Assembly (NCBI GenBank): GCA_963804185.1
Contig: CAWDPM010000021.1
Coordinates: 26,119 to 90,118 of the forward strand
Length of the DNA: 64,000 bases
Direction: 5' to 3'
DNA from: an uncultured Candidatus Rokubacteria bacterium
GTDB taxonomy: Bacteria > Methylomirabilota > Methylomirabilia > Rokubacteriales > DASRDR01
Below are positions 29,765 to 50,980 of the stretch, in pieces (the stretch's first letter is position 1; every line of letters begins with the position of its first letter). The notes beneath the pieces were generated by a model. That model saw only the letters and a program-made list of their open reading frames with translations. It searched no databases and was not told where the DNA came from. The position numbers and the translations under genes were made by a program.

Positions 29765-29890
29765 GTTACGCCTCGACCGTGAGCGGCGCGGCGAGGAGAC
29801 CGAAGCTCCCAGCGACGAACGCTCGTCTTTTCATCACTGGATGACTTCATCCGCCCGCGCGAGCACGGAGGACGGGATCGTCAGACCGAC
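29765..29890 (-). pseudogene. SBP-SBP junction remnant (C-terminus of one, signal peptide of the next)
   Basis: GLTIPSSVLARADEVIQ* then MKRRAFVAGSFGLLAAPLTVEA*. Confidence 0.75.
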
Positions 29891-30159
29891 GCTCCGGTCC
29901 CCTTCGTCGCCGGGGAGCACACGGGGCATCGCTGGTTCCACGGGAGCGCACACCCGTGACCGTCATGGAACCAGTGGCGGTCACACCCGTCACAGTAGTG
30001 ATCATGGCGCGGAAGAGGGGGCGGCTTCCGTCGGCGGCCCCATCGCTGGACTATCCGATCACGGGCCACGCCCCAGTACCAGGGCATGCTGAAGATGCGC
30101 AGACGACTGATGCGAACGGACCAGTCACGTCTGAACGGATTGCGCCCACGAGGTCGCAT
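29881..30159 (-). CDS. Small Cys/His-rich hypothetical protein
   Basis: HDHYCDGCDRHWFH..C..CPVC pattern; start uncertain. Confidence 0.5.
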   Translation of the reverse strand: MRPRGRNPFRRDWSVRISRLRIFSMPWYWGVARDRIVQRWGRRRKPPPLPRHDHYCDGCDRHWFHDGHGCALPWNQRCPVCSPATKGTGASV

Positions 30160-30175
30160 AAGCGGGCGCCCTTGC

Positions 30176-31153
30176 CTACTGGATGAGCTCATCCGCCCGC
30201 GCCAGCACCGAGGGCGGGATCGTGAGGCCGAGGGTCTTGGCCGTCTGCAAGTTGATCACCAGTTCGACCTTCGTCGGCTGCTCGACGGGGAGGTTAGCGG
30301 GGTTTGCGCCCTTAAAGATCTTGTCGGCGAAGCCGGCGGCGCGGCGATACACGTCGGCGTAGTTCACGCCGTAGGCGAGCAACCCGCCGACATACTCCCT
30401 CGATGCGTACATGGCCGGCAGCTGATGCTTGGCTGCCAGGTCGACGATGACCCGCTGATTCGCCAGGGTGAGCGTGTCGAGCCCCACGATCAACGCGTCA
30501 GCACGCTGCCGAATGGCGGCATCGAACGCCGGCCCGAGATCCTCGGGCTTTCGCGCGTCGAGAAGCTGGGGTTGCAGGCCCAAGGATCGCACCGCCGTCT
30601 CCACCTCTTTCCACTGAGGCGGGATGGCTGGGTTGCCCATGTTGAAGAGGGCCGCGATCCGTGTGGCTTTCGGAACCAGCTCCTTGAGCAGCTCGACGCG
30701 TTTCGGATAGGTCTCCATGACAATGGGGCTCAGGCCCGTAACATTCGCGCCGGGGCGTGCGAGGCTCGCGACGAGGCCCTGCGCGACGGGATCGCCCACC
30801 CCCGTGATGACCACGGGAATCGTACCCGAAGCATTCTTGGCCGCCAGCACCGCTGGCGTTCCTCTCGCAAGGATCATGTCCACCTTCAGTCGGACCAGGT
30901 CCGCCGCCAGGCTGGGGAACCGTTCGTCGCGGCCCTCGGCCGACCGGTACTCGATGACGAACTGCTTCCCTTCCACGTACCCTAGTGCCCGGAGCCCTTG
31001 TCGGAAGCCCTCGAGGTTGCCGGCATTCGTCTCTGGCGACGTTCTCTCGAGCATGCCGATGCGATAGACCTTCCCCGGCGGCTGCGCCTCGGTGGGGAGC
31101 GGCGCGGCGAGGAGGGCCAGGGCGAGGTAAGCGACCATTGAAACTCGCGTCAT
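30176..31153 (-). CDS. ABC_sub_bind family substrate-binding protein
   Basis: Signal peptide, KVYRIG, SLARPGANVTG, EQPTKVELVINL..GLTIPPSVLARADE. Confidence 0.9.
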   Translation of the reverse strand: MTRVSMVAYLALALLAAPLPTEAQPPGKVYRIGMLERTSPETNAGNLEGFRQGLRALGYVEGKQFVIEYRSAEGRDERFPSLAADLVRLKVDMILARGTPAVLAAKNASGTIPVVITGVGDPVAQGLVASLARPGANVTGLSPIVMETYPKRVELLKELVPKATRIAALFNMGNPAIPPQWKEVETAVRSLGLQPQLLDARKPEDLGPAFDAAIRQRADALIVGLDTLTLANQRVIVDLAAKHQLPAMYASREYVGGLLAYGVNYADVYRRAAGFADKIFKGANPANLPVEQPTKVELVINLQTAKTLGLTIPPSVLARADELIQ

Positions 31154-31299
31154 GGGTCACCTCCGACGCACACCGCTTCCGCCTTCTCGAGCCAGAAGCC
31201 CATGCCCATCTCGCGGCGGCGGGCCGTGGCGCGATCGAGGTTCGCTCAGGCTCCGCGGGGCGGGCGCTCGAGGCCGGGGAGAGCCCTTCGCGAGCGGTC

Positions 31300-32898
31300 C
31301 TACGTGATCTTCACGTTCCAGAAGACCGGCGCGGTGAACTTGAGAATACCCTGGACCTCCTTGCGGAAGGCCGTCGGCTGGAACCATTCACCCCACGGGA
31401 CGTACGTCACCTCGTCGAGAGCGACCTTCTGGATCTCCTCGGCGAGCTGCCTGCGCTTCGCCTGATCGGTCGCGCGTACCCAGTCGGTGGTGAGCTTCTC
31501 GAGCTGCGGAACCTCGGGCCAGCCGAACCAGGCGCCCGGGCCGGCGCCCGCCACGCCGTAGTGGACGACCGGGTTGAACACGTCCGCCGCGGCCCACCAG
31601 GTGTGCACGATGTTCCAGCCGCCCTTGTCGGGCGGCTCCTTGCGGGCGCGCACGGCGAGGTGCGACGACCAATCCATCGGTTTGAGGACAACGTTGAAGC
31701 CGATGGACTCGAGCCGCTGGCGCGTGACGATCGCCGCGGCGTTGATGAACGACACATCGATGGCCTGGATCACCACGACGGGCCGGCCATCGTAGCCCGA
31801 CTCCTTCACGAGCTGCCTTGCCCGGTCGAGGTCGTGTTTCATCATCGGCTCGGCGCCGGTCTGCGTGAAGTGGGGACCACCGCAGGCGAAGACCGAATAG
31901 CAGGGTCGGTAATACTTCGACTGCCCGTGAGCCCAAGCAAGATATGTCACCTGATCCATCATGTGGAGCAGTGCTTGGCGCGCCTTCTTGTTGTTGAACG
32001 GCGGGTGCAGGTGGTTCGGCCGGAGCCAGCCCTGGGTCCCGAGGGGATCGACGAGGAACGTCCGCAGAGCCGGGTTCTGCTCGATCTTCGGGATGAAGTC
32101 GAGCGGTGGCAGCTCCCACCAGTCGACGTCGCCCGCGGCGAGGGCGTCCGCCGCGTCCGCGGGGTCGGGGATGTATCGCCAGACCACCTTGTCGAGATAC
32201 ACTTTCTTGCCGCCCGTCGAGCCGCTCGGCTCCTCGTCGCGCGGGACGTAGTCGGGGTTCCGCACGTACACGACCTGCTTGCCCGGTTGCCACTCGTCCC
32301 TCGCGAACTTGAACGGTCCCGAGCCCACGACCTCCTTGAGCTGCTCGTCCGGCGAGGTGGCGGCGATCCGCGCCGGCATTATGAAGGGCACGTTGTTCGA
32401 CGGCTTTCCCAGCGCGTCGAGCACAGGGCCGAAGGGCTCGGCAAGCTCGAGTGTGAACGTCTTCTGGTCGACGGGCCGGATCTTCCCCGTGTGCGCCATG
32501 AGGAGCCGGCCGAAGCGATCCTTCTTGCCCCAGCGCTTGAGGGACTCGACGCAGTCTTCCGACCGGACCGGCTGCCCGTCGTGCCACCGGAGGCCGGCGC
32601 GCAACGTGAACGTGTACTTCATGCCGTCCGCCGATACGGTGGAGTGCTCGACCATCTGCGGCCGGATCTGGAGCTGTTCGTCGGTGCCAAAGAGGGTATC
32701 GTACACCAGGTACCCGTGGTTACGCGTGATGTAGGCGGTCGTCCAGACGGGATCCAGGACCTTCAGGTCGGCCTGCGCCACGAACCGGAGAGTCCGACGA
32801 CCCTTCTGGGCGTGGACCGCTGGCGCCCCGAGCGTCACGGCAGCGGCCGTCGCGGCCGCGCCTCCGAGAATCTGTCGGCGATTGAGATGATTCATCAC
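31300..32898 (-). CDS. Peptide/nickel (family 5) ABC substrate-binding protein with Tat signal
   Basis: NRRQILGG twin-arginine, LDPVWTTAYITRNHGYLVYDTLF, GSGPFKF. Confidence 0.9.
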   Translation of the reverse strand: MMNHLNRRQILGGAAATAAAVTLGAPAVHAQKGRRTLRFVAQADLKVLDPVWTTAYITRNHGYLVYDTLFGTDEQLQIRPQMVEHSTVSADGMKYTFTLRAGLRWHDGQPVRSEDCVESLKRWGKKDRFGRLLMAHTGKIRPVDQKTFTLELAEPFGPVLDALGKPSNNVPFIMPARIAATSPDEQLKEVVGSGPFKFARDEWQPGKQVVYVRNPDYVPRDEEPSGSTGGKKVYLDKVVWRYIPDPADAADALAAGDVDWWELPPLDFIPKIEQNPALRTFLVDPLGTQGWLRPNHLHPPFNNKKARQALLHMMDQVTYLAWAHGQSKYYRPCYSVFACGGPHFTQTGAEPMMKHDLDRARQLVKESGYDGRPVVVIQAIDVSFINAAAIVTRQRLESIGFNVVLKPMDWSSHLAVRARKEPPDKGGWNIVHTWWAAADVFNPVVHYGVAGAGPGAWFGWPEVPQLEKLTTDWVRATDQAKRRQLAEEIQKVALDEVTYVPWGEWFQPTAFRKEVQGILKFTAPVFWNVKIT

Positions 32899-33189
32899 AC
32901 GCTCCGTCTACGGGGTCTCGGGCTCGCGGAGAATCGATTCTGCAGCATGGATCCTAGGCGGTGCAAAGCCTGTTTCCCGCCCCCCCCGATCCCGCCCCGT
33001 CAGCCCAGCGGGCGCATTCCCCGGGGTGACCGGACTCTAGCGCGCGGCAGGCCGGCCCGGCAAGGCGCAGAGCGGGCCCAGAGCGGGCCGGGACGGACTC
33101 GGGGAGACGTAGGTGAGAACCGGCTCCCACGGGTCGGCGGGCAGACTGGAACGGCGGCGGCTGGGGGTGGACGCCGGAACCGACGGCGG

Positions 33190-33420
33190 GTCACGGGGCG
33201 GTGACGGAACGGTGCGGCGGCGGCCGGGCCGCCAGCCCCAGCGCCGCGAGGAAGCCGCCGGACCGCATGGGGCTCGGTCACCGCGCCCACGATCTGACGC
33301 GGGCCGGCACAGCGGGGACAGACGAGGACCTCGATCGCGAACACGCGGTGGAGGAGCCGGGCCCACGGCCACCGCCTTGGCGCGCGCGCGCCGGCGTCCG
33401 CGCGCGCGTCGTCAGGTGCG
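33190..33420 (-). mobile_element. IS91-family transposase C-terminal remnant
   Basis: WARLLHRVFAIEVLVCPRCAGPRQIVGAVTEPHAVRRL. Confidence 0.65.
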
Positions 33421-33715: not shown

Positions 33716-34085
33716 GGAGCCCTCCGTAGGACGAACGTCCTGACGCGCCGCTGTTGGTTCAAGGATTGGGTCGACGTTCAGTTGAGGCTGCGGGCCAAGC
33801 CGATCTACATCCTGGCTCCCTGGTGACTACCGGACCTGCGACGAGATCGAGGAAGCCTTCCGAGCCAATTAGGCGATGCTACCGTGCGCCTAAGGACTCC
33901 AAACGCCCTCTCCGCCGCGGACACCCTGGCCAGCCTTCGATCAGTGACTTGCCCACGACTTGCCCTAAGCGAACGAACGTCATCGATCGGAACCGGTCTC
34001 CATCCCCAGGAGCGGCGCGGTCTAAGCTCGCGGATTGATGACGATGTCGTCCGATGGCGTCCGCTGGTAGCGTCGGGGGCATGGC

Positions 34086-34130
34086 CTACGAATCCGAAGG
34101 TCGCAGGTTCGAATCCTGCTGGGCGCACCA
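34086..34130 (+). repeat. 3' half of tRNA-Arg(ACG): att-site fragment
   Basis: CTACGAATCCGAAGGTCGCAGGTTCGAATCCTGCTGGGCGCACCA without D-arm or 5' acceptor strand. Confidence 0.85.
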
Positions 34131-34533
34131 CCGAAGCTTCCGTATCTGACGCGGGCTTTCGCTGGACTGACGGCGGGTTCGAGGACATGAGCGGGGCCGC
34201 CCGTCACCGTCTGTAGAGTGCCCCTGCGTGCCCGGAAGTGTCTAGATGTGCCGGGCGAAGTGGCAAAGTCAGGGCAAAGACAGGCGAAGGGCGTCAGTGT
34301 CGCCGCCCGCTCGTGGCTAGCGTCGTCGTTAGCCGGGTGCGTCTGGCGCGGTGACCTGGTCACGCCGCAGCGGATTGGACCTCAGACGGGACAATGATCC
34401 CCTCTGCATCCCGCTCCGGACTCTCGCGCGCGTGGCATAGCCGGAACCCGTGGTCGATCTCGAGTCCGGCCTCCAGCGCCCGCGCCGCCCCAGCGAGAGT
34501 CTCCCCCTGGCCTCGCGCCTGAAGTCGTACCCG

Positions 34534-34778
34534 GTGACGTACGTACGCCGCCAGACCCCGGTCTGTGGCGCGGTCTGCCGCCGCCCTGACGGGCCGCCGG
34601 CCGCAGCGCGTCTGCTCCCCGCGATGCCGCGTCGCATCCTGGCGCTCGCTGCGCGCCCAAGAGACCGCCGCCACGCTCGCCCGGCTTCCTCGCCGAGAAC
34701 GCGGCCCTCCGGCAGCGGGTCGGCGAACTCGAACGCCTCGTCCGGCAGCTCAAGTGCCGCCTCTGGCCACAGGCGTAG
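34534..34778 (+). pseudogene. Repeat gene A copy 1 (Zn-finger + coiled coil), frameshifted
   Basis: QRVCSPRCR..AENAALRQRVGELERLVRQLKCRLW; homologous to 53754-53993. Confidence 0.7.
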
Positions 34779-34815
34779 TCCGAACTGCCAGCCGCCGCCC
34801 TGTGAGGCATTTTCT

Positions 34816-35097
34816 TCAGCGCAACTCGGGCGGCGCGAACCGCCGCAGCGGATTCGCCACCTGATCGGGCTCCCAGATCGGCACGAGCTGCCACCAGCCC
34901 GCGCGCACCGGCACCGGCACGAACTCGGTCGTGCAGCCGCACCAGGCGGGAATGTGGAGCGTCCGGCCGGGTAGCCACCCATGTGGACGCAGGTGCTCGG
35001 TGCGCATCCGCATAACGGCGACCTCGCGCCCACACGTCCAGCAGGCGCGGGTGGGGAGCCGGCGGCCGGCGGCGTCGAGCCAGATGGGCGGGGTCAT
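34816..35097 (-). CDS. Repeat gene B copy 1, 93-aa Cys/Trp-rich protein
   Basis: MTPPIWLDAAG..CWTCG..WCGC; near-identical copy at 48283-48564. Confidence 0.75.
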   Translation of the reverse strand: MTPPIWLDAAGRRLPTRACWTCGREVAVMRMRTEHLRPHGWLPGRTLHIPAWCGCTTEFVPVPVRAGWWQLVPIWEPDQVANPLRRFAPPELR

Positions 35098-35140: not shown

Positions 35141-35635
35141 CTACTCTGTGAGCAAGATAAGGTCCAATTCCTTGTCCTTGCTGCGCAACCGACCGATGAG
35201 GAACCGCAAGAGGTTTGCATACACGGTCTTGCCGATCCGGTCGTGCTCCTCCACAATTCCCCGAAAGTCCGCCCTCGTAAGCAGGCACAGTCGTGAGGGT
35301 GTTACCGCCTGCGCCGACGCTGAACTGGGTTGGTCGTCGATGACGCCGTACTCTCCGAAGCAGCGTCCGGGGCCGAGGCGGTTGAGGTGAATGCGGCTCG
35401 GTCTCCGCGTCATCCCGCCTGCCACGTGTTCTGGCAGGAAGACCTCGATTTCGCCTTCGAGGACAATGTAGAGTCCTTCGCCCTTATGCCCTTCCGCCAG
35501 GAGCATCTGGCCTGCAGCCGCGTCTACCAACCGGCAGGAGGCGATGATCAGGTCCAGCTCCGCCGGCCTCAGGCGCTCGAAGACTACCGAGTTGGCCAGG
35601 TTCGCCCGATACCGTTGCAGGCTACCCGCGCTCAT
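35141..35635 (-). CDS. Cyclic nucleotide-binding domain protein
   Basis: LYIVLEGEIEV, LGPGRCFGE, SASAQAVT. Confidence 0.85.
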   Translation of the reverse strand: MSAGSLQRYRANLANSVVFERLRPAELDLIIASCRLVDAAAGQMLLAEGHKGEGLYIVLEGEIEVFLPEHVAGGMTRRPSRIHLNRLGPGRCFGEYGVIDDQPSSASAQAVTPSRLCLLTRADFRGIVEEHDRIGKTVYANLLRFLIGRLRSKDKELDLILLTE

Positions 35636-35740: not shown

Positions 35741-36721
35741 TCACTCGATCACCTCGTCCGCCCGCGCGAGCATGGCTGGGGGAATCGTCAGGCCCAGCGC
35801 CTTCGCGGTCTTGAGATTGATCACGAGCTCGAACTTCGTCGCTTGCTGGACCGGAAGATCAGCCGGGCTCGCCCCTTTCAGGATCTTGTCTACATAGGCG
35901 GCGGCGCGGCGATAGAGATCTGCACGATCCGGGCTGTAGCTGAGCAGGCCTCCTGCCTCCACGTGTTCTCGCGGTCCGAACATCGTCGGCAGCTTGTGCG
36001 TCAACCCGAGCTCGGCAAGCCGCTTTGCCCCGCCCATGAACAGCGGGGTCGAGAGGACCAAAACCGCGCCGGCACGTTCTCGAACGATTGCCAAAAAGGC
36101 GCCGTCGAACTCTGAGGTACTGCGCACGGCCAGCGTTTGAAGCCGGAGACCCAGTGCCCGGCTCATATCCTCGACCGCCTTCAATGCCGGTCGATGCGAC
36201 GGCGTGGCCGGATCCCAGATAATGGCCACGCGTTTGAGTCCAGGGAGTGTCTCCTTCAGCAACTCCAGGCTCTTCGCCATGGTCTCACTCATGACGATGG
36301 TGAGTCCCGTGGCATTGGTGCCTGGCCGCGCGAGGCTCGCGACGTGACCACTGCCAATCGGGTCCGCGTGGCTTGCGAAGACGATGGGGATCGTCGAGGT
36401 TGCTCGCTGAGCCGCCCCGGTGTAGATGGACGTCGGCGCGACGATGAGATCGACCTTGAGTCGGACCAGCTCCTCCACCAGACCCGGAAGCCGATCGAAT
36501 CGCCCCTCGGTCCACCGGTATTCAAAGGCAATGTTCTGCCCCTCGACCCAGCCCAGATCACGCAGCCCCTGACGGAATGCTTCGAGCGCGTGCGGCCACA
36601 CGGCGGGGGTATCCCACAGAAACCCGATGCGATACACCTTTCCAGTCTGTTGCGCCGCCACAGAACGGGGGGCGGCCAGGGCGGTGACCGCTCCAGCAAC
36701 AAACGCGCGCCGGCTAATCAT
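35741..36721 (-). CDS. ABC_sub_bind family substrate-binding protein
   Basis: SRRAFV signal, SLARPGTNATG, KFELVINLKTAKALGLTIP. Confidence 0.9.
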   Translation of the reverse strand: MISRRAFVAGAVTALAAPRSVAAQQTGKVYRIGFLWDTPAVWPHALEAFRQGLRDLGWVEGQNIAFEYRWTEGRFDRLPGLVEELVRLKVDLIVAPTSIYTGAAQRATSTIPIVFASHADPIGSGHVASLARPGTNATGLTIVMSETMAKSLELLKETLPGLKRVAIIWDPATPSHRPALKAVEDMSRALGLRLQTLAVRSTSEFDGAFLAIVRERAGAVLVLSTPLFMGGAKRLAELGLTHKLPTMFGPREHVEAGGLLSYSPDRADLYRRAAAYVDKILKGASPADLPVQQATKFELVINLKTAKALGLTIPPAMLARADEVIE

Positions 36722-37689
36722 TGGATCACTTCATCCGCCCGCGCGAGCACCGACGGCGGGATCGTGAGGCCGAGGGCCTTGGCGGTCTTGAGGTTGATGA
36801 CCAACTCGAACTTCGTGGGCTGCTCCACCGGGAGGTCGGCAGGCTTGGCACCCTTGAGAATCTTGTCCACGTAGATGGCGGCGCGCCGGAACAAGGCCGG
36901 GATATACGTGCCGTACGACATGAGGCCGCCGGCCTCCACGATGATTCTGTTCGACCAGATCGCCGGAAGCCGGTGCCGCGCCGCGAGCTCAGCGAACTGC
37001 GTCCGGTATGTCGTGAACAGCGGCGTATCGATGTTGAGCAGGGCCCCGGCACCGCTCACGGCCTTGAATGCGGCTTCGAAGTCCTCTGGACCTCGCACCG
37101 CCGCCGGCTTGAGTTGCAATCTCAGGGCGCGTGCCGCTTCCTCCGTCTCTCTCCGCTGTACCGGGTCGGTTGGATGCGCCGGATGCGTGAGGACCGCCAC
37201 TTGCTTCAATGTCGGAAGGAGTTCCCGGAGCAGCTCCAGGCGCTTGGTGATAGTCGCGCCAGCGTTGACCGTCACTCCGGTGATGTTGCCGCCGGGGCGT
37301 GCCAGGCTCTTGATAAGCCCGATCTCCACCGGATGACTCAGGCTCGTGAAGACGATGGGGATGGACGTGGTCGCGGTCTCTGCTGCGATCCCCGCGGACG
37401 AGGCCGAAGCCACGATGACGTCGACCTTCGATCGCACCAGCTCTTCCGCGAGGCGCGGTAGCTCATCGAGGGTGCCGATCCGGAATTCGATGACCACGTT
37501 CTGGCCCTCGACGTATCCCAACTCGCGGAGACCTTCCCGGAATTCGTCGACCCAGAACTTCGGCGGCTCGCCGGCGCGGAGAAATCCGATCCTGTAGACC
37601 TTCCCGGCCTGCTGCGCCTCGGTGGCGAGCGGCGCGGCGAGGAGGCTGAGGGTGCCCACAATGAACCCTCGTCGCTCCACGCGTGTCAT
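36718..37689 (-). CDS. ABC_sub_bind family substrate-binding protein
   Basis: ERRGFI signal, SLARPGGNITG, EQPTKFELVINLKTAKALGLTIP. Confidence 0.9.
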   Translation of the reverse strand: MTRVERRGFIVGTLSLLAAPLATEAQQAGKVYRIGFLRAGEPPKFWVDEFREGLRELGYVEGQNVVIEFRIGTLDELPRLAEELVRSKVDVIVASASSAGIAAETATTSIPIVFTSLSHPVEIGLIKSLARPGGNITGVTVNAGATITKRLELLRELLPTLKQVAVLTHPAHPTDPVQRRETEEAARALRLQLKPAAVRGPEDFEAAFKAVSGAGALLNIDTPLFTTYRTQFAELAARHRLPAIWSNRIIVEAGGLMSYGTYIPALFRRAAIYVDKILKGAKPADLPVEQPTKFELVINLKTAKALGLTIPPSVLARADEVIQ

Positions 37690-40600
37690 CGCGCGCCTCC
37701 ACCCAGCTCCGCGACGGCATTCTCCAGCCAGAAAGTCATGCCCATCTCGCGGTACATCGTGGTCGCGGTGGTCAGGTGCTCATCGGCCTTCGCCCGGTCA
37801 GCCAGTGCGGCGGTAGAGCGTGCCGAGGCCGAGGTGGCAGTGGGCGACGAGCGGGCGCATGCCCAGCGACCCGGCCAGTGTCAGCGCCTGGCGAAAGTGG
37901 GCACCGGCCTCCTCGACCCCAGGCGGGCCGCCGCGCGCGGCAATGTCACCGAGAAGTCGAAGCACCCATGCCCGGCAGCCGATTTCCTCGTGTGCCTCAG
38001 CCATGCGCAGCGCGTCGTGGGCCAGCCCGCGCGCCTCGTCGACACGATCGGCGAGCAAATGGGCTTCCGCGTACCAACCGTCCCGGAGCGACTGCAACCA
38101 GCGCAAGTCGGGCGACGCGCGGGATGCTCCTGCTTCGTCGATCAGACGTTGCGCCTCCGCGTGGTGTCCCAGCAGGGCTCGGGCGTAGCCGAGTGCCGCC
38201 CCGCAGGTCAGGAACAAGCTGACGATGCCCCACACGCGTCCGATCTCCCGTCCCTGGGCGAGGGCCGAGGTCGCCCGGTCCAGGTCTCCGCGGCGGAGGC
38301 TCACCTGGCCGAGGGCCCAGCACGCGAACGAGAGGGAGAATGGATGATCGGCCGCCGTAGCGATCTGCATGGCCTCGTCCGCCATCGCCAGGCTTTCCGC
38401 GAACGATCCCGTCTCGGCCTGGCTGAGCGCCAGCCACACCCGGGCGATGACCGACGGGAGAGTCGCCGCGCCCGGACGCGCGTAGAGGTGCTCACCCGCG
38501 CTGAGCGTCACGGCATCACGAAGGATCGCGATCGCGCGCGGGAAGTCGCCGAGCATGTGATAGCTCGCCCCCAGGCGATAGCCGAGCTGGGCCCGGAGCA
38601 CCGCATCCTCCAAGCCGTCCGCGAGGGCCAAAGCGCGGATACCCTCCGTAACGCTCCGCCGGTTATCGGAAAGGCCCAACAAGGTATTCACGAGCCCACT
38701 CGAGACGTGGACTTGGCGCCAGCGATCTTGCAGGCGTTCGGCGATCGGAACGGCGGCCAGGAGTTCGGGCAGAAGGCGCTCCAGCTCGGCGAGCGGCGTC
38801 AGCACGTCTCTCAGGTCGGTCCGCAGATCGACCGCGTGTTCCAGCGCGAACCGACTCTCGGGGAGGCGCGGGAGGACCCCCAGCGCCTCCTCATAGGCGG
38901 CCGCCGCTTGCCGGAAGGCGGAGCGCCCGGCCGCCTTGAGGCCGGCCTGACGAAGGTAGGTCACCGCCTTCTCCCACGCTTCACCTCGCACCGCGTGGTA
39001 GGCCAGCCGCTCGATATGCTCGGCGAGGCGGTCGGGATAGAGCCGCTCGATGGCCTCGACGATTCGGGCGTGCTGGGCTCGCCGTCGCTCCTGGAGCAGG
39101 CTGCCGTAGGCGACCTCGTGGGTGAGCGCATGTTTGAAGGTGTATTCGAGGTCCGGGAAGAGGCTCGTCTCGTACAGGAACTCGGCCGCCTGGAGGTGGG
39201 TGAGCCCCCGGCGAAGGTTGTCCTCGGGGACGTCGGCGATCGCCTGCAGGAGCGTGAACGGCACATCCTTCCCAATGACGGCGGCGGCCTGGAGGAGCCG
39301 CTTGTCCTCGGGGGCCAGCCGGTCGATGCGTGCCGCGAGGATCGCCTGAACCGTGACTGGGATCTGCCACGCGTCCGGTGTCTTCGCGACCCGATACGCG
39401 CCCCGCTCCCCGACGAGCACCTGGGTCTCCACGAGGGTCCGCACGCTCTCCTCCAGAAAGAAGGGGTTTCCCTCGGTCCGTTCGATCAGCACCCGCTTGA
39501 GTGGCGCGAGGGTCTGGTCCTCCCCCAGGAGCGCGGTGAGCAGTGTGTCGGCGCTCTCGGGCGGCAACGGGTCGATCCGCAGCTGGACGTAGTAGGTCTT
39601 GCCACCCCAGACATGCTGGTACTCGGGCCGGTAGTTGACGAGCAGCAGGATGCGGGCGGTCGGCAGGCTCTCTATGAGGCCGTCGAGGAGCGCCTGGGTC
39701 TCGGCGTCGATCCAGTGGAGATCCTCGAAAAGGAGGAGCAGCGGCTGGACCAGACTCTCCCGGAGCAGCAGCCGTCTGATCGCGTCCAGAGTTCGCTGTC
39801 GGCGTTGCGGCGGGTCGAGGGCCGCCCACGCGGCGTCCTCGACGGGGACGTCCAGCAGCGCCAGCAGCGGTGTCAGCAGTGGCTCCAGCGCCCGGTCCAG
39901 CATCAGGAGTTTGCCCGCCACGCGTTCCCGGATCTCTCGCGGTTCGTCGCGCTCCTGGATCCGGCAATACCCCTTGAGCAACTCAATGACGGGCAGGTAC
40001 GGTGTGGCCTTCCCGTAGGAGACCGAGCCGCTCTCGAGCACCAGCCAGCCCTGGGTGCGGTGAGACCGCGTGAACTCCCAGGCGAGCCGCGATTTTCCCA
40101 CCCCGGCCTCGCCCACCACCGCGACCGCCTGCCCGTGGCCCGTCGCGGCGCGCTCGAGCGCCTGGGCCAACTGCTGTAGCTCACCGTCGCGTCCGACGAA
40201 GCGGGTCAGCCCACGGGTCGCACTGGCCTGGAGCCTGGACCGGGTCGGCACGGTGGCGGTCAACTCGTAGACCGGTGTCGGGGTTTCCAGCCCCTTCACG
40301 GCCACCGCCCCGAGCGGTTTGACCTGAACGTAGCCTTCGGCCAGCTTCAAGGTGTCACCGGTGACCAGCGCGGAGCCGGGTTTCGCCATCTGCTCCATCC
40401 GGGCGGCGAGATGGGTCGTTTGCCCGACGGCGGTGTAATCCATGTGGAGGTCACTGCCGATCGCCCGCACGACGACCTCACCGGAGTTGAGGCCCACGCG
40501 AATCTGCACGGGTGTGCCGCCGCCGCGCTGGATCTCGTCCGCGTAGAGGTTCACCCGGCGCTGCATTCTCAGTGCGGCATAGCAGGCGCGGACTGCGTGG

Positions 40601-41057
40601 TCCTCATGCCCGATCGGCGCGCCGAACAACGCCATGATCCCATCGCCCATCACCTGGTTGACGGTGCCCTCGTAGTGATGAACGGCCTCCATCATCCGCT
40701 CGAGCACCGGGTCGAGGAGCTTCCGCGCCTCCTCGGGGTCGCGGTCGGCGAGCAGCTCCATCGAGCCCTTGAGGTCGGCGAAGAGCACCGTGACCTGCTT
40801 GCGCTCGCCCTCGAGGGCGCTCTTCGACGTCAGGATCTTCTCGGCGAGGTGCTTGGGCGTGTAGGACTCGGGGACTTGGCGTCCAGCGCGGTGGTCGCGG
40901 CGCTGGCAGCGGCGGGTCCCGCACTGAGCCGCAGAATCGCTTGCCCGGCGCAAGCTCTGCCGCCACACTGCGCGCAGGCCAGCGCGAGGCGGCTGCCGCA
41001 GTCCTCGCAGAACCGCGCGCCCGTCGCGGTTCTCGGCTGGCACCGGGGACACGTCAT
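37686..41057 (-). CDS. Zinc-ribbon / adenylate cyclase / AAA ATPase / TPR multidomain protein (frameshifts near both ends)
   Basis: [59 protein letters not shown]-term [11 protein letters not shown]. Confidence 0.88.
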
Positions 41058-41059
41058 GG

Positions 41060-42996
41060 CCGTGGGGGCGCGCCTCCGCCCTGATCGCTCGCACTCTTTC
41101 GTCAAGCCGAACGGGCAGCGTGAAGCTGAACGTCGACCCCTGGCCCACCTGGCTCTGGACCCAGATCCGCCCCCCGTGCAGCTCCACGAACTTCTTGGCG
41201 AGCGTCAGGCCCGAGCCCCGTGCCCTCCTGCGTGCGGGCGTCGTCCCGGCCGACCTGGCGGAACTCCTCGAAGATGGCCGCCTGATCCTCGGGCGCGATG
41301 CCGATCCCCGTGTCGCTGACGGCGATGGTGACGACGCTCGTCGGCCGCCGTCGCGGTGAGGCCGACCCGGCCCCCCTCCGGGGTGAACTTCACCGCATTG
41401 GAGAGGAGGTTCACCAGGATCTGCTTGACCTTCCGCTCGTCCGCGACGATGTCGCCCACCCGCTCGTCCACGGTCTGGGTGAGCGTGATCCCGTGCCGGG
41501 TCGCCCGCTCCCGAACCAGGGTCAGCGCATTGTCGAGCGCGGTGGGCAGATGGAACCGCCCGAGCTCCAGCTCCAGCCGGCCGGCCTCCACCTTGGCCAG
41601 GTCGAGGATGTCGTTGATCAGGGAGAGGAGATGCCGGCCCGAGGACAGGATGTCCTGGAGGTACTCGGCCTGCTTCTCGTTCACCTCCCCGAACATCCGC
41701 TCGGCCAGGACCTCCGAGAAGCCGAGGATCGCGTTCAGCGGGGTCCGGAGCTCGTGGGACATGTTGGCGAGGAACTCGGACTTGTGGCGGCTCGCGGCCT
41801 CGAGCTGGCGGCTCTTGTCCGCGATCTCTTGGAAGAGTCGAGCGTTCTGGATCGCGAGGGCGGACTGGGTCGCAAAGGTGCGCAGCAGATCGATGGTCTC
41901 GGTTGGGAACTCACCAGGCCGCTTACGCGTGACCCCAAGACAGCCTATGAGCCGGTCCTGGTGGATCATCGGTACTGCGAGGACGGCTCGGACCCCTGAT
42001 TCAATGAGGGTCTCCCGTACCCGGCTCTCGTACAGCCCCGGGATGGTTATGTCAGGGACCTGGAACGGTTCGCGCGTGATCGCGGTCCGTCCAATTGCAC
42101 CCTCGCCTTTCTGGTACCGGACTTCGCGAAGAGCCTGTGGAAGACCTTCCCCGATTTCAGCGGTGGCCCGCTGGACGAATTCCTCGGCAATTTCGTCGTA
42201 TTCCGAGACCAGTCCACCGTCCAGCCCCGAGAGCTCGACGGCCCGCGACACGATGGTCGTCAGCACCGTGGCGAGATCGAGCGTGGAGCTGACCGCCCTG
42301 CCGACCTCGCCGAGGGCGGTGAGCTGATCGACCGACCGGGTCAACTCGGCGGTCCGCGCCTGCAGTTCCTTGAACAGCCGCACGTTCTCGATCGCGATGA
42401 CCGCCTGGTCGGCGAAGGTCTGGAGGAGCTCGATCTGCTATCTCGGTGAACGGCCGAACCTCAGTCCGCCGGATGCCGATCGCCCCGATGGCCTCGGTAC
42501 CGCGGAGCAGAGGAACGGTGAGCGTTGTCCGGTGGCCCAGAGACCGCGCAAACGCGCTGCCCTCTGGATACTCGTCCGTCTCGGCCTGGATGTCGGCGAC
42601 CTGGATCGTCCGCCGGTCGAGTACCGCACGTCCCATGGACGTTCCTCGAAGGGGAAATTCGCCCGGAGGAAGAGAGGGGATCGGGCCCTGGTGGGCCACG
42701 AGGCGGAGCTGGTCACCGTCCACCTGGAAGATCGCGGCATCGGACGCGTCGCACAGACGGGCGGCGCTCCTCAGCACTGCCGCGAACACGGGCTGGACAT
42801 CGGTCGGGGAGCTGGAGATAACGCGCAGGATCTCGGCCGTCGCGGTCCCCTGCTCCAGCGACTCTGTCAGGGCACTGGTGATCTCCGCATAGGACGGTGC
42901 TGGCGTGCCAGTCGGATTGGCGCTGAGGGGCGTGCCGCACTCCCCACAGAACTTCTGGCCGCTGGGGTTCTCGTGCTGGCAGCGGGGACAGGGCAT
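41060..42996 (-). CDS. Zinc-ribbon / GAF / histidine kinase (frameshifted; 3' end approximate)
   Basis: [21 protein letters not shown], two GAF regions, [35 protein letters not shown]. Confidence 0.85.
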
Positions 42997-43216
42997 GTTC
43001 AACGTCTCCCGAGTCCGGATCTCTAACCGCAGGCCACGATCAATCGCGTCACGGGACCCAGGGAGCCGCCGGAACTGGGCGTCCCGGCGCCCCCGGAGGG
43101 CACGGCAGCCCGACCCTACCGCGAGCCGGCCTCCGGCGCCAGCCGCCGGCTACCGCTCCCGGTAGGCTCGCTGCCGGACCCGGTTGCCTTCCGACTCGGT
43201 GGCGTAGCGGCGGGGA

Positions 43217-43287
43217 TCCGCCAGCGGGTCGGCGAGCTCGAGCGCCTCGTCGGGTAGCTCAAGCGCCGCCTCTGGCTGACGGCGTAG
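43217..43287 (+). repeat. Repeat gene A copy 2 (3' fragment only)
   Basis: RQRVGELERLVG*LKRRLWLTA*. Confidence 0.75.
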
Positions 43288-45187: not shown

Positions 45188-45211
45188 GTGTCCTCCACGA
45201 GACACCCTCGA

Positions 45212-46029: not shown

Positions 46030-46042
46030 GGCGAAAGGCGTT

Positions 46043-46489
46043 TCAATTTCCAGTCAGTTCGCTCGGATGGTCACGACCGTCGTCCGCCAGCTCGGGTTCG
46101 GGACCGTGCTGCTGAACTCCACGACGGCGGTGATCGTCGTGGTCGCCGCCGTCGGGGCTGCCGGGCTGGACGGCAACGCAGCGGGAGAACCCTGCGTACG
46201 CAGAGACCGTCCGCAGATTCCCGCTCCCCGTGCAGTCGGTCGGCAAAGTGCCCGACGACCCGTCGAAGCTAAGACTCGCGATGCTGCTGTAGTCGGCGGC
46301 CTTGGCGCGCTCGATGGCTTCCTGGGCCAGGAGGGTTGCCGTGGTCTGGAAGCCGCTCGCCACCACCCCGTACATGGCGTACGGGACCGACGCCGCAAGC
46401 CCGAGGAGCGCAATGGCCAGGAGGACCATCGCGACCATCAGCTCCACCATGGAGACGCCGTGCTGATCCCGCCTTTTCAACCCGGTCAC
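46043..46489 (-). CDS. PilV-like prepilin
   Basis: HGVSMVELMVAMVLLAI, ATLLAQEAIE. Confidence 0.78.
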   Translation of the reverse strand: MTGLKRRDQHGVSMVELMVAMVLLAIALLGLAASVPYAMYGVVASGFQTTATLLAQEAIERAKAADYSSIASLSFDGSSGTLPTDCTGSGNLRTVSAYAGFSRCVAVQPGSPDGGDHDDHRRRGVQQHGPEPELADDGRDHPSELTGN

Positions 46490-46502
46490 GGCGGTTTCTC
46501 TT

Positions 46503-47051
46503 TCAGCACCCGGCCAGCCGGACGCCGCCGTACAGGGTGACGGTGATCGTGCTGAGACACGCTGAGGGCGACGTGTCCACGTTGAAGATTGTGTTGGCCG
46601 GGCCCGCCGGGAGAATCCGATTCCCGATCGGGTCGAAGATCAAGGTCGGCGCGGAGGTCACGACGTTGCCGGTTTGGGAAAGGGCTTGCCAGTCGTATCC
46701 GGAGACGATGGCGCCGTTGCACGCCGGAGTCGTGTCGGCCTGGCGAATGCGGTAGTGGCCGGACGCGAATTCGATGCAGTGATCGGATCCCTGCGTGATG
46801 GCGAACTGCCGGGCCAGCCGGATTGCCGCCACCGTCTGCTCGGCGGCGCCCTTGATGAGCAGGACCTGGCGAACGTTGGATAGCCAGGGATATGCCGCGA
46901 AGCCGACGATGGCGAGAACAAGGAGCACGATCATCAGTTCCATGGTGGTCAGGGCGCGCTGCTCCCTCCACCCGGGTGCGGTCCGTCCGGCAGTCAACTG
47001 CTTTCGATCTCTCCGGGGGGTTGACACCTTGAGTCTCCCGCCGCCATACAC
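46503..47051 (-). CDS. FimT/GspH-like prepilin; start uncertain
   Basis: RALTTMELMIVLLVLAI, IRLARQFAI, IFDPIG. Confidence 0.75.
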   Translation of the reverse strand: MYGGGRLKVSTPRRDRKQLTAGRTAPGWREQRALTTMELMIVLLVLAIVGFAAYPWLSNVRQVLLIKGAAEQTVAAIRLARQFAITQGSDHCIEFASGHYRIRQADTTPACNGAIVSGYDWQALSQTGNVVTSAPTLIFDPIGNRILPAGPANTIFNVDTSPSACLSTITVTLYGGVRLAGC

Positions 47052-47523
47052 TTCGAATCAGCGGGGCATGGCCTCGGATCTTCCCGTGGCCATCAGCGCT
47101 CCGAGGGCGCGGAGCATCGAAGGACCCTTCGGGGGGGGCCAATCACTCGTTGAACGTCTTGAACCCAGCGATGCCGACATCAGCAGGTCTAACGCGTGCC
47201 CGGACAGGCTCGACTTGCTGTGCTCCTCTTGGGAGTGCGGCTAACCGTCCGCCTTTCCCCGGCTGGGCACGGACTGGTGCGACCGCCTCCCTTGGCTCCG
47301 AGATTGCGCGGCGGACACGCGCCCTGTCAAGGGCGTCACGAGTGCGTCAGGAGTGACGGGCGTCGCGAGTGACGGCGAATGGCGGCAGACGCCTGAGTCC
47401 TTGCTGATCTTGCGGATCTGGACCGCGAGTCGGATCTTGTTGATGCCGATGCCGCCGAGGTTCCCCGATTGGCACGGTCGCCACTGATACGGCGCGAGAT
47501 TGCGTTTGGCATTAGTCCCTATC

Positions 47524-47696
47524 CAGCGCGTCTGCTCCCCCGCTGTCGCATCATCCGTTGGCGGGCGCGGCGCGCCCAGGAGACCGCCGCCACGCTCGCG
47601 CGACTACTCGCCGAGAACGTCGCCCTCCGCCAGCGGGTGGCCGAACTCGAGCGCCTGGTCGGGCAGCTCAAGCGCCGCCTCTGGCCGACAGCGTAG
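47524..47696 (+). repeat. Repeat gene A copy 3 (5'-truncated)
   Basis: QRVCSPRCR..AQETAATLARLLAENVALRQRVAELERLVGQLKRRLWPTA*. Confidence 0.75.
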
Positions 47697-48282
47697 TCCC
47701 GCCGCGCCCTCGCGCGGTCCAGCGCCGATCGAGGAGCTGGCGGCGCGGTGGTTACGCGTTCCAGGCAGCCCGCCAGCGCTTGGATAGGGCACCGGCGACC
47801 CGAGCACGCCCTCTCGGGCCAGCCTAGATCAGGTCCGGATCAGGCCCGGCGTGTGGAATCCGCGACCTCTGCACGCCCGTGTCGCAATTAGGGTCCGCCG
47901 GTGCGGAGAGCATTGCAGTCGCGTACAGCCCCGCTCCGGTAAGTCCCCCCGTTTTCGGTGAGTTGCGAGCGCCCGATGGGTGGCTCGGAACTTGCTCATC
48001 CTGGCCCGCCAGAGCTCACCGCACGCAGACCGGTAAGGTCGCCGCTGAACGGCCGGCTTCCCGCTGAAACCGATGCCGTCCGAGGGGGAGCTTAATCGAG
48101 GCCCGTGAGGAAAGGAGGCGGCCCGGTTCGCGACGTTATCCCAGCCAGGCGGGTCGTTGCCCCGCCCGGCCGGCTGCACGACGAGACACACGAAGCTACC
48201 AGGGTCTGGGGGCACCACACCCCAGCCCGGGCCATACCACCCACATCTCACCAAAAAGAGTGGTCAGGGGCCTGTTCGTTCC

Positions 48283-48564
48283 TTATTGGGGCTCCGGCGG
48301 CGCGAACCGCCGCAGCGGATTGGCTACCTGGTCTGGCTCCCAGATCGGCACGAGTTGCCACCAGCCCGTGCGCACCGGCACCGGCACATACTCGGTCGTG
48401 CAGCCACACCAGGCAGGAATGTCGAGCGTCCGCCCAGGCTGCCACCCGTGCGGGCGCAGGTGCTCAACACGCATGCGCATGACTGCGACCTCCCGCCCAC
48501 AGGTCCAGCAGGCCCGGGTCGGGCGCCGACGACCGGCGGCGTCGAGCCAGATGGGCGGGGTCAC
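48283..48564 (-). CDS. Repeat gene B copy 2
   Basis: 93 aa, near-identical to 34816-35097. Confidence 0.75.
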   Translation of the reverse strand: MTPPIWLDAAGRRRPTRACWTCGREVAVMRMRVEHLRPHGWQPGRTLDIPAWCGCTTEYVPVPVRTGWWQLVPIWEPDQVANPLRRFAPPEPQ

Positions 48565-48598
48565 CTTATGGCCTGCGGCGAGGGCGGCATCTTCACTC

Positions 48599-49600
48599 TC
48601 ACCCCTTCAACTCCTTCTTCAGCTCGTTGAGGAAGCGCCAGTCGGTGCCCTGGGCAATCAGCTTATTCGGGGGCGACTTGATCACGCCGGCTTCAAGCAT
48701 GCGAAGCGCGAAGAAGCGGATCGTGTCAGCCGAGTCGTACTCGCGCCACCGTCCGTACGGCACCTCACGTAGTACCTGCAGTGTGGCGTCCTGGTGCGCG
48801 GTGAAGCCGCGATCAACGAGCATCCGGGCGACCCGTTCAGGCTCGGCAGCGCAGATGTCGGTCGCCTTGACAATCGCGCGGAGCGCACGCTTCGTCGCCA
48901 CGGGGTGCTTCCGGACAAAATCCTGGCTCGCCACCGTCATGCAGCAGAAGTACTGAGACCAGGGGCGATCCAGTGCGGTGTTTACCACCGCGTGGCCGAT
49001 CTTCCTTGCCCGGAGTTCCTGGGGGACCGGCGGGAAGCCGAGGACCGCGTCGACTTTGCGCTCGATGAACAACTGCGTTGCCCCCGGGTTGAGCACAAAG
49101 GTGATGTCCTTCCGAGGATCAAGGCCAACGTAACTGACCATCGCAGCCACGAACGCCTGATAACCGGGAACCGCCACCGCCACCGTCTTGCCATGAAGGT
49201 CACGCACCGACCGGATTCGGTCGGTGGCAAACAGTTCATAGCATCCGCCGTGAACCCCCATCAGAGCCACGAGCGGCTTCCCTGCGTCCAAGAGAAGGAG
49301 CAGACCTGGTGCGTCGAGGAGTGTCATGTCCACCTGGCCAGCGGTCAGCGGAACTGAGGGGTCAGTAGTAGTGGTCACGTACTCCACCGTCGAAAAGCCC
49401 TCGGCTCGAAGCAGGTCCTCAGCAACCCACTGAGGTGCGACGCAGGCGACATCGAACGGGAATTTGACAAGGCGGATCGTCGTTGTCTCCGGCGGCGCCT
49501 CTGCGGCAGCAAGCTTGGTTTCAGTGCCGAAAAGTGCCGCCGCCCCCGCCAGGGTCAGGCCACTCACAAACTCGCGTCGATTCCAAGGCGCGCTATGCAT
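48599..49600 (-). CDS. NMT1/SsuA-like substrate-binding protein with Tat signal
   Basis: NRREFV twin-arginine, PETTTIRL, RPWSQYFCC, HPVATKRALRA. Confidence 0.85.
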   Translation of the reverse strand: MHSAPWNRREFVSGLTLAGAAALFGTETKLAAAEAPPETTTIRLVKFPFDVACVAPQWVAEDLLRAEGFSTVEYVTTTTDPSVPLTAGQVDMTLLDAPGLLLLLDAGKPLVALMGVHGGCYELFATDRIRSVRDLHGKTVAVAVPGYQAFVAAMVSYVGLDPRKDITFVLNPGATQLFIERKVDAVLGFPPVPQELRARKIGHAVVNTALDRPWSQYFCCMTVASQDFVRKHPVATKRALRAIVKATDICAAEPERVARMLVDRGFTAHQDATLQVLREVPYGRWREYDSADTIRFFALRMLEAGVIKSPPNKLIAQGTDWRFLNELKKELKG

Positions 49601-49697
49601 GATCGACCTCCTTCATCTCCGCCGCCGCCTGCTCCAGCCAAAAGCCCATCTCCATCTCGCGGTAGTACGTAGAATGGCATCATCGCACAACACGGCC

Positions 49698-50696
49698 TTA
49701 CTCGATGACCTCATCCGCCCGCGCCAGCACCGCCGGCGGGATGGTGAGGCCGAGTGCCTTGGCGGTTTTCAGGTTGATGACGAGTTCGAACTTGGTGGGC
49801 TGCTCGATGGGCAGGTCGCCAGGCTTCGCGCCTTCCAGAATCTTCGCCACATGTGTGGCGAGACGCCGGTACAGCTGAAGGACGTTCGGCCCATACGACA
49901 TCAGCCCACCCGCCTCTGCAACCTCCCGATATGCGTAGATGCCTGGGAGGCGGGTCCTTGCCGAAAGGCCAGCAAAGTACCGTGCGTTGACGTAGTGCGT
50001 TCTATCCGTGAACCCGAGGAGTCCATCCGCCTGCGCCCTGGCGATGAGCAACGCAAGGACGGACTCAGGGTCGTCACCCCCGTGCGCCTCGACGGGGTGG
50101 AGAGTCACGTCGAGTGTGGCGGCCGCATCGCGCAACTCCTGCCAGTCCCGGACGAAGTCGAGATTGGCCGGATTCCAGAGGACGGCCACGCGGGATAGCG
50201 TCGGAACAACCTCCTTCAGCAAGGACAGCCTTTTGACGGACACCTCGGGCGTGAACGTGGAGATCCCCGTGATGTTCCCGCCCGGACGTGCGAGGCCCGC
50301 CACGATCCCTTTCCCGACCAGATCATCGGCACATCCGATCACGATTGGAATGGTGCGCGTCGCCTGTCGGGCTACGTGGAATTCCGGGCCGCATACCTGA
50401 AATATTAGGAGATCCACCTTCTGCGCGATGAGGCCGTCCACCAGGCCTTGCAGACGTTCGTAGTGTCGTTCTGCGGTCCGGTACTCAAGGACGAAATCCC
50501 GGCCGTTCACCCAATGCAGCGCCTCCAGGCCTTCGAGTAGTGCCTTGGAGTTAGGATGCGCGAGCCATCTCTCGACGGGGAAGTTGAAGGACACGACTCC
50601 GATCCGTGGAATCCTCGGCGGACGCTCGGCCTCGGCGGCGAGCGGCGCGGCGAGGGCCGCGACGAGAAGCATGACCATCGCCAAGCCTCGCGTCAT
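49698..50696 (-). CDS. ABC_sub_bind family substrate-binding protein
   Basis: GLARPGGNITG, EQPTKFELVINLKTAKALGLTIPPAVLARADEVIE. Confidence 0.9.
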   Translation of the reverse strand: MTRGLAMVMLLVAALAAPLAAEAERPPRIPRIGVVSFNFPVERWLAHPNSKALLEGLEALHWVNGRDFVLEYRTAERHYERLQGLVDGLIAQKVDLLIFQVCGPEFHVARQATRTIPIVIGCADDLVGKGIVAGLARPGGNITGISTFTPEVSVKRLSLLKEVVPTLSRVAVLWNPANLDFVRDWQELRDAAATLDVTLHPVEAHGGDDPESVLALLIARAQADGLLGFTDRTHYVNARYFAGLSARTRLPGIYAYREVAEAGGLMSYGPNVLQLYRRLATHVAKILEGAKPGDLPIEQPTKFELVINLKTAKALGLTIPPAVLARADEVIE

Positions 50697-50980
50697 CGCT
50701 CGGCTCCACCCAACTCCGTCTCCGCTTTCTCCAGCCAAAACCTCATGTCCATCTCCCGGTACATGGCGCTCGCGGTCGTCAGGTGCTCGTGCGCCTTCAC
50801 GTGGTCACCGGTGCGGCGGTAGAGCTCGCCGAGGCCGAGGTGGCAGTGGGCGACGAGGGGGCGCATGCCGAGCTCGGAGGCCAGGACCATGGCGGCGCCG
50901 TAGTGCCCCTCGGCCGCCGCCGCGGCGGGATGGTTCGGGTGCGAGGCAATCTCGCCAAGGAGGCGGAGCGCCCATGCCTC
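50693..50980 (-). pseudogene. C-terminal stub of an adenylate cyclase/TPR protein
   Basis: [48 protein letters not shown]. Confidence 0.8.

Follow-up and report, generated by a model that had tools for sequence, protein, structure and literature searches.

In integrons, single-gene units of varied order and origin, unrelated cargo among them, stand in tandem and each is closed by a repeated element; islands that are targeted to tRNA genes by a tyrosine integrase are a further known class. Here, such systems are compared with a stretch of 64,000 nucleotides from an uncultured Candidatus Rokubacteria bacterium (the window; G000:C21:26119-90118, where G000 is the genome under study, with 7.93 Mb in 32 contigs, C denotes its contigs, other G codes denote other genomes and L codes individual loci cut from genomes). 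The window carries binding-protein genes (SBPs) of family PF04392 in series with adenylate cyclase (AC) genes and with orphan 3' ends of both. We propose, on comparative sequence evidence and with fair though incomplete confidence, that RecA-type recombination in the shared ends of SBPs swaps their middles as cassettes without an integron integrase, and that the AC stubs are mostly deletion remnants. A sequence-only reading of the window had suggested that conserved SBP and AC termini act as homology arms and portable ribosome-binding sites; what it had observed could be partly confirmed, and its interpretation is partly supported.

Like integrons, SBPs form arrays in which the units are single genes, their order varies and unrelated cargo occurs. 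Unlike integrons, they have no IntI and no conserved hairpin, their repeat is coding sequence and their switch points are scattered. In Anaplasma p44/msp2, silent donors recombine into one expression locus within the genome (PMC1366493). That family is expanded, its centre varies between conserved 5' and 3' flanks (>50 bp in p44), and many truncated copies and fragments occur, all of which the SBPs share; unlike p44/msp2, SBPs are mostly full genes in coupled arrays (15 of 20 full copies are intact), and close middles occur between species or phyla and not within a genome. In type I restriction specificity genes (hsdS), domain movement (DoMo, or TRD reassortment) replaces variable recognition modules, loses them or moves them between loci at conserved flanks of ~14-53 bp, and no dedicated recombinase is named (PMC3077401). 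Module exchange with crossovers in conserved flanks is likewise seen in SBPs and in the TPR segment of AC genes. However, DoMo units are domains within one gene between repeat pairs, whereas the SBP unit is approximately a whole gene, its arms are 75-90% alike and unrelated genes are captured. The DoMo trait of two domain positions flanked by the same repeat pair is absent, as an SBP consists of a single middle between two arms that differ. Finally, in Rhs/VgrG C-terminal displacement (PMC8125069) and homology-facilitated illegitimate recombination (HFIR; PMC3240628), a homologous join paired with an illegitimate one gives rise to arrays of orphaned 3' ends. SBPs similarly leave orphan 3' ends with variable, non-homologous left junctions, but the orphan end in those systems is the variable payload, while in SBPs the conserved arm is what is orphaned, and a binding protein or other cargo makes up the payload. 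The SBP system thus works like p44/msp2 conversion, hsdS domain movement and Rhs/HFIR, and falls outside the integrons, the p44-type donor systems and DoMo. No description of it was found in the literature searched, with subscription journals and supplements outside that search.

Uncultured soil bacteria carry large arrays of orphan PF04392 genes, for which the route of diversification was previously unexplained. The arrays grow by import rather than local duplication, with separate histories of ends and middles even between phyla, which offers a testable route of soil gene flow that would need no dedicated recombinase. Trees, read mapping and binning based on PF04392 genes are misled by the gene ends.

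Middles and ends of binding-protein genes

The window holds the following PF04392 genes, four long SBPs of which exceed the Pfam gathering score for ABC_sub_bind (129-163 bits).

30176..31153, minus strand: PF04392 SBP, 325 aa, intact
35741..36721, minus strand: PF04392 SBP, 326 aa
36718..37689, minus strand: PF04392 SBP, 323 aa
49698..50696, minus strand: PF04392 SBP

Their closest relatives are found in Candidatus Rokubacteria and Methylomirabilota records, with relatives at 46-60% in Binatia, Proteobacteria, Acidobacteria and others. G000 has 38 PF04392 matches and 14 other genomes of the genus have 6-54 (12-54 in most). A cognate ABC permease or ATPase was not seen among the island ORFs scanned; no genome-wide search was made. 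The genes stand in units of the order zinc ribbon, (GAF)n, HisKA, AC, (SBP)n, an optional NMT1 gene or cargo, a small CxxC/CxC orphan protein (ZP) and a short repeat.

The separate histories are most easily seen in single genes. A copy of the SBP at 36718-37689 in locus L002 keeps 95-100% identity in each 100 nt of the middle; identity is lower in the first ~90 nt and declines to 90% and then 78% over the last 200 nt, after which a different gene follows. The copy switches to other alleles in the signal codons and in the last ~190 nt; taken over the L002 and L111 copies, the middle is 97% identical and the ends 79-91%. Likewise, the SBP at 35741..36721 shares 89% of its middle and 79% of its 3' end with a copy in G007 that has different neighbours. 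For the SBP at 30176-31153, no close relative was found in the 14 genus genomes. Core genes of four relatives are only 80-90% identical to those of G000, so middles at 95-100% must have been transferred recently.

The same inversion runs through a set of 179 full SBPs from G000 and the relatives' loci (140 intact). In pairs with 88-98% identical middles, identity decreases from 0.89-0.97 to 0.79-0.90 at the very place where that of distant pairs climbs from ~0.55 to 0.73-0.78, and 19 of 20 clusters are less identical in the last 75 nt than in the middle. Among the intact genes, 12 independent close pairs from different genomes agree at synonymous sites to 0.80 in the middle (1179/1466) and to 0.81 in an internal 50-codon control (312/387), compared with 0.63 in the last 50 codons (192/304; lower in 11 of the 12 pairs, nominal p = 4e-10, sites within pairs not being independent). 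Terminal and internal synonymous sites thus behave differently, which the sequence-only reading had made a test of its case. Clusters outside Rokubacteria agree (0.76, 646/845, in the middle vs 0.57, 99/175, at the end), with the drop in seven of eight and a same-locus tandem pair as the exception. A Rokubacteria gene (L030) and an alphaproteobacterial one (L032) share 85% of their middle, with synonymous agreement at 95/115 sites there vs 9/25 at the end. Close pairs within one genome number 0 of 18, and the best middle identity inside G000 is 61%. The change points are scattered, from 15 to 186 nt before the end at the 3' side and from 33 to 324 nt after the start at the 5' side, as expected from homologous recombination. 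Neighbours mostly differ among close copies except where a whole island has been copied; the fixed gene order that would have told against the sequence-only reading is not seen among these copies. In the core-gene control, only 7 of 29 sense-strand comparisons place the last 25 codons below the middle, and the difference there is 0.01-0.05 (13 antisense rows of 42 were set aside). A nearest-neighbour rank test (31/31 internal vs 6/31 terminal) is biased by the family-wide similarity of the ends and is not relied on. One complete block was also observed: the AC-SBP-SBP-SBP array at G000:C4:1584-8758 is 96-100% identical to L125 in G007, whose core genes are 80-85% identical, and it is, judging by these identities, a recent cross-species island transfer.

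Among distant copies, the ends are alike beyond their protein sequence. In 16 intact SBPs of G000, four-fold sites of the signal codons agree at 0.56 and those of the last 20 codons at 0.55, where codon context predicts 0.42; for the middle, the value is 0.31-0.42. AC ends reach 0.54-0.58 (0.42-0.43 expected), and part of the cyclase domain is raised too. GC at four-fold sites is higher at the ends. The 3' excess of SBPs persists between phyla (0.49 vs 0.29); since the excess is similar between genomes and phyla, concerted evolution within a genome was rejected as its sole cause. An attC-like or coupling hairpin at SBP or AC ends was also rejected. With RNA parameters on the sense strand, four of five SBP ends fold no better than shuffles, and neither an alifold consensus nor a gain over synonymous permutation was found; one AC stub gave z = -3.7, while the other three AC ends did not fold well. 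The C-terminal SBP motif occurs in the solved PF04392 relative 3LKV as well, and the arms therefore probably began as a protein constraint.

Orphan SBP ends and cargo between the arms

The sequence-only reading had pointed to a bare SBP end abutting the next start, which is present at 29834-29889 and followed by an SBP start that reaches TAA after 23 codons. The features at this junction are listed here in the direction of the plus strand.

29647..29833, minus strand: broken PF04392 SBP 5' part, signal peptide, TAA after 23 codons
29834..29889, minus strand: orphan SBP 3' arm (GLTIPSSVLARADEVIQ and stop) abutting the next SBP start
29890..30170, minus strand: 281-nt single-copy cargo between the full SBP end and the orphan arm

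The cargo overlaps a Cys/His-rich ORF (29881-30192) without Pfam match. Positions 29600-30209 are covered by contigs of a soil run (X2) with 0-1 differences per piece, although such a run may be the source sample. An RNA run (X23) yielded only short pieces, all on conserved ends, and these give no evidence of expression. The five SBP ends that had been called near-identical in fact have 40-49 of 55 nt in common (73-89%).

The search for gene fragments covered candidate regions, and very weak fragments elsewhere may be missed. In G000, 14 of the 38 SBP ends are truncated to stubs. Among 43 SBP 3' parts from G000 and relatives, 22 are only 36-89 nt long, and several of them follow the layout SBP end, cargo, stub, next gene, as at 30176-29834 in the window. 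The orphan 3' ends have variable, non-homologous left junctions, and in one case a short shared word marks the fusion of an SBP start to an SBP end. A pyridoxamine-oxidase-like gene and a methyltransferase are among the cargo. In G001 and G014, a signal arm and a 3' arm of SBPs enclose a DUF3237 gene, which follows an AC end in G001 and an SBP end in G014, with the switch in the LLAAPLAAEA codons. A cluster of SBP stub starts at model position 909-910 was considered as a dedicated cassette boundary and rejected, as four of the five stubs there are element insertions. Outside PF04392, tandem arrays of NMT1-family SBPs (G000:C1:96768-99934 and C20:160153-170711) have their own conserved 3' end and short 3' stubs, which suggests that a second SBP family behaves likewise.

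Adenylate cyclase stubs

The AC gene, its stubs and the genes they border are as follows.

31150..31216, minus strand: AC/AAA/TPR 3' stub, ~65 nt, with stop/start overlap, carrying GGAGGTGA
37686..41054, minus strand: full-length zinc-ribbon/class III cyclase/AAA/TPR gene (AC), frameshifted in the assembly at 37800 and in the 5' part
41105..43002, minus strand: zinc-ribbon/GAF/HisKA/HATPase kinase upstream of the cyclase, frameshifted in the assembly
48599..49600, minus strand: NMT1/THI5-family SBP, 333 aa
49593..49667, minus strand: AC 3' stub, ~70 nt, giving AAGGAGGT to the NMT1 gene
50693..50984, minus strand: AC 3' stub, ~290 nt, overlapping an SBP start

By Pfam, the long AC gene combines cyclase, AAA_16 and TPR behind a GAF-HisKA kinase. 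It had been described as intact, and it is full-length by homology, but in this assembly its open frame stops at 37798 and a frameshift also affects the 5' part. Contigs of three of four soil runs lack the extra base at 37800, so this frameshift is probably an assembly error. The ATGA overlap of the AC end with an SBP start at 37686-37689 is present, as are the stub REMGMGFWLEKAE..GDP with its stop at 31150-31216, which overlaps the SBP ATG at 31153, and the stub at 50693-50984, which overlaps the ATG at 50696. The stub YREMEMGFWLEQA..VDHA with its stop at ~49593-49667 also exists, with AAGGAGGT 5 nt before the NMT1-family ATG at 49600, but its overlap is 8 nt and not ATGA. A ribosome-binding site in the AC end, which the sequence-only reading had proposed to be portable, is clear at three of the four junctions (GGAGG; GGAGGTGA at a spacing of only 3 nt; AAGGAGGT) and weak for 50696. 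The two shortest stubs of the window are beyond chance (E-values of 1.4e-10 and 4.5e-14 with the AC-end profile), and contigs of soil runs X1 and X2, one of which may be the source sample, bridge the 49667 and 49600 junctions. In a paralogous SBP-NMT1 spacer on contig C15, only the first ~25 nt are common with the 49593 stub and the gene has its own ribosome-binding site; the AC end and a different NMT1 start were therefore joined at a non-homologous junction. No match spanning this AC-to-NMT1 junction was found in the 14 genus genomes.

Across G000, 39 AC ends were counted (E < 1e-5), comprising 18 full-length genes, 4 starting near 2.5 kb and 17 truncated copies of 50, 53, 73, 74, 91, 151, 159, 228, 244, 277, 313, 473, 521, 688, 922, 1251 and 1372 nt. 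These lengths are not uniform (p = 1e-5) and fit a log-uniform spread (Kolmogorov-Smirnov p = 0.72), a continuous series that excludes stubs of fixed length. By profile, the AC end runs into an SBP or NMT1 start in 8 of the 17 stubs vs 6 of the 18 full genes. Three stubs are zinc-ribbon starts fused to the AC end, and of the 27 AC ends in the relatives' loci that no locus edge interrupts, 6 are truncated. Because of the log-uniform lengths and the lack of a clear enrichment before SBPs, the AC stubs are probably mostly remnants of ordinary deletion or erosion that keep the overlap and the ribosome-binding site for the next gene. The idea of AC stubs as defined portable units is not supported. 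Nor is the AC end the 5' switch of the SBP cassettes, since the switch falls in the signal-peptide codons instead. Rarity of stubs had been named as a sign against cassette shuffling: both AC stubs (17/39) and SBP stubs (14/38) recur across the genome, but the AC lengths fit ordinary deletion. Conserved termini as homology arms hold up for the PF04392 genes, where middles sit between different end alleles and neighbours and cargo sits between the arms, and not for the AC stubs. The AC genes themselves are mosaic: pairs with AAA parts at 84-88% have TPR parts at 35-53%, and one G000 pair is the reverse chimera. The AC end is probably also the right arm for exchange of the TPR segment within AC genes.

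Elements inserted in the arm

A 2.6-kb element encoding a large serine recombinase (Resolvase/Recombinase/Zn-ribbon) with inverted terminal motifs is present in four copies in G000.

Copies of the element: L077 (C11:968171-970773); L076 (C28:173250-175842); C5:1519409; C11:289474-292093

Three of the four copies split an SBP at model position 910-914 (for C5, at the left junction), and the flanks in these SBP cases do not match one another. A Walker-A ATPase gene holds the fourth copy, which is flanked by a 7-nt repeat. The SBP site used by the other three copies is also adjoined by the 3' ends of two group II introns (L079, G000:C15:24606; L078, G000:C20:22005), at an Rfam score of 38 bits, below the gathering threshold of 40; further copies of the intron end lie in unrelated sequence. 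Together, two insertions of the recombinase element and two of the introns account for 4 of the 14 SBP stubs in G000. Targeting of conserved coding sites has been described for large serine recombinases (PMC10083194), and the 2.6-kb element matches these in its domain set and in reusing one conserved coding site, here the SBP 3' arm.

Mechanism and alternative explanations

Exchange of PF04392 genes as cassettes would proceed by homologous recombination of the RecA type at two places: the ~150-200 nt that the genes share at their end, and the signal-peptide codons. Donor DNA would arrive on tRNA-targeting integrase islands or by natural transformation; RecA, DprA, ComEC and MutS genes are present in G000. 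Repeated exchange may have kept the arms alike and GC-rich. One homologous and one illegitimate join, as in HFIR, would leave the short SBP-end stubs, and the incoming gene would inherit the stop/start overlap and the ribosome-binding site of the upstream arm. A scan of G000 for the integron integrase (TIGR02249) gave 13 weak matches, none over the cut-off, in agreement with the claim that none takes part. The wording "recombinase-free" calls for qualification, as the units lie in a tyrosine-integrase island, 4 of the 14 SBP stubs come from serine recombinase or group II intron insertions and the exchange most likely needs RecA.

Several observations weigh against this mechanism. The arms are on average only ~76% identical and MutS is present, so most arm pairs would recombine poorly. 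The search for a direct recombination event in short-read contigs gave only short or ambiguous joints, possibly from other organisms, which were not counted. Several core operon genes also show raised terminal synonymous identity, and as the excess occurs between phyla too, raised 3' identity in distant copies is not diagnostic alone. Two core genes have lower synonymous identity in the last 25 codons, and the drop at the 5' side of SBPs is partly expected from the fast evolution of signal peptides. After removal of the four mobile-element cases, the excess of SBP stub lengths over a log-uniform spread is weak (p = 0.08). Lastly, relatives were sampled only around SBP hits (~0.95 Mb of loci) and not as whole genomes, and sites within a pair depend on one another.

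The strongest competitor, though we consider it unlikely, is birth and death: island-borne paralogues would erode by random deletion, and their ends would be alike through protein and ribosome-binding-site constraint without any part in exchange. The log-uniform AC stubs, the in-frame or microhomology deletions that fuse a zinc ribbon to an AC end or an SBP start to an SBP end, the motif in 3LKV and the raised terminal identity that core genes can show all fit this view, which we accept for most AC stubs. For SBPs, it is largely refuted by the inversion in close pairs, because decay cannot turn the most conserved segment into the most diverged one; core genes show such a drop in few comparisons and by small amounts, and the same cargo is found behind two different 5' arms. 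Slightly less probable still is that site-specific elements (the serine recombinase, group II introns, an IS91-like element or island integrases) shuffle the genes by cutting and joining at the SBP end, with the stubs as the scars left behind. The reuse of one site by recombinase and introns, the pile of SBP stub starts at 905-910 and the proximity of SBP ends to att-like tRNA fragments speak for it, yet it accounts for only 4 of the 14 stubs, the switch points in close pairs spread over ~170 nt, and the other intron copies and the fourth recombinase element lie in unrelated sequence.

We give very little credence to an assembly artefact, in which the shared ends would produce chimeric joins or mis-polishing in metagenome-assembled genomes and so simulate mosaics and a shuffled gene order. 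SBP and AC ends do attract >100x the contig depth of the middles from soil communities, and the assembly of G000 contains indel errors; however, polishing toward a community consensus would raise rather than lower the similarity of the ends, 5 of the 12 pairs join genomes of 10-30 contigs (G001, G003, G008, G014) and the stub junctions of the window are bridged in separate runs. Just as improbable in our view is a dedicated, selected diversification system in which a factor borne by the unit, for example ZP, directs exchange at the arms. The fixed unit order ending in ZP, the many copies of ZP and its near confinement to the genus, and the conservation of the arms at nucleotide level across phyla would suit such a system, but the same inversion occurs in other lineages, ZP is barely found outside the genus, there is no conserved hairpin, and ZP gives no sign of acting on DNA. 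Cassette exchange by RecA-type recombination can also be extended to a bolder form, which we regard as conceivable but doubtful: the last ~75-200 nt of PF04392 genes would be a soil-wide, cross-phylum landing pad, an equivalent of the integron made of coding sequence and maintained at nucleotide level, at which sensor cassettes for ligand binding pass between Rokubacteria, Binatia, Proteobacteria and Acidobacteria and unrelated genes are taken up into signalling operons with translational coupling, and which the serine recombinase element and group II introns parasitise.

Island context and further features of the window

The whole finding lies within an island of ~45 kb bounded by a 43-nt repeat of tRNA-Arg(TCT), 100% identical. 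An integrase ORF (C21:98103-99131, 343 aa) lies beside the tRNA-Arg gene outside the window; its PF00589 match (E = 2e-4) is below the cut-off, and it is read as a tyrosine-integrase remnant. With its tRNA-derived direct repeat and integrase beside the tRNA, the island resembles the tRNA-targeting class. In G000, an att-like tRNA fragment is found within 15 kb of 17 of 38 SBP ends and of 11 of 21 ZP copies, compared with 7.6% of random points. Because tRNA-derived repeats bracket the units and SBPs and ZP lie close to such fragments, integrase islands are likely the vehicle of the units. The serine recombinase element is rather a parasite of the arms, and neither is the cassette exchange itself. 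The remaining features of the island are listed below.

28229..28271, plus strand: att-like 43-nt direct repeat, 5' part of tRNA-Arg(TCT), left border of the ~45-kb island; partner at G000:C21:99301-99343
31300..32898, minus strand: family-5 SBP (PF00496), 85% to a copy on C18, in place of the AC body
32950..33400, minus strand: repeated mobile-element end, 33 blastn hits genome-wide
34083..34130, plus strand: 3' fragment of tRNA-Arg(ACG), second att-like remnant
34816..35097, minus strand: ZP, 93-aa CxxC/CxC orphan protein
35141..35635, minus strand: cNMP-binding domain cargo gene
48283..48564, minus strand: second ZP copy

The mobile-element end at 32950..33400 has no Pfam match, and we presume from its motif that it is IS91-like. 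ZP, also without Pfam match, has 27 matches in G000 and is present in 12 of the 14 genus genomes (124 homologues), while 16 genomes outside the genus gave one weak match only. It is usually the last gene of AC-SBP units, often near an att-like tRNA fragment, and one homologue (P0090) is fused to an integrase tail. A stacked island array is seen at G000:C15:220670-329600, where four att repeats in tandem, accompanied by integrases and AC-SBP-ZP units, come after tRNA-Thr(CGT). In the window, a tmRNA gene (18665-19021) has a 28-nt repeat of its 3' end ~4 kb downstream (22971-22998), a further small island remnant. A repeated segment of ~80-370 nt with a short coiled-coil ORF on the plus strand (34427-34800, 43217-43300, 47524-47760 and 53772-53998) stands at both ends of several units and has ~20 copies genome-wide. 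Phage-like remnants with a Prim-Pol/DUF927 gene occupy 52213-58590 inside the island, including ORFs without family match that we assume to be terminase-like. The island further encloses a minor pilin-like cluster (44375-47142) with a GspH-like match, of which a second copy is found on C1.

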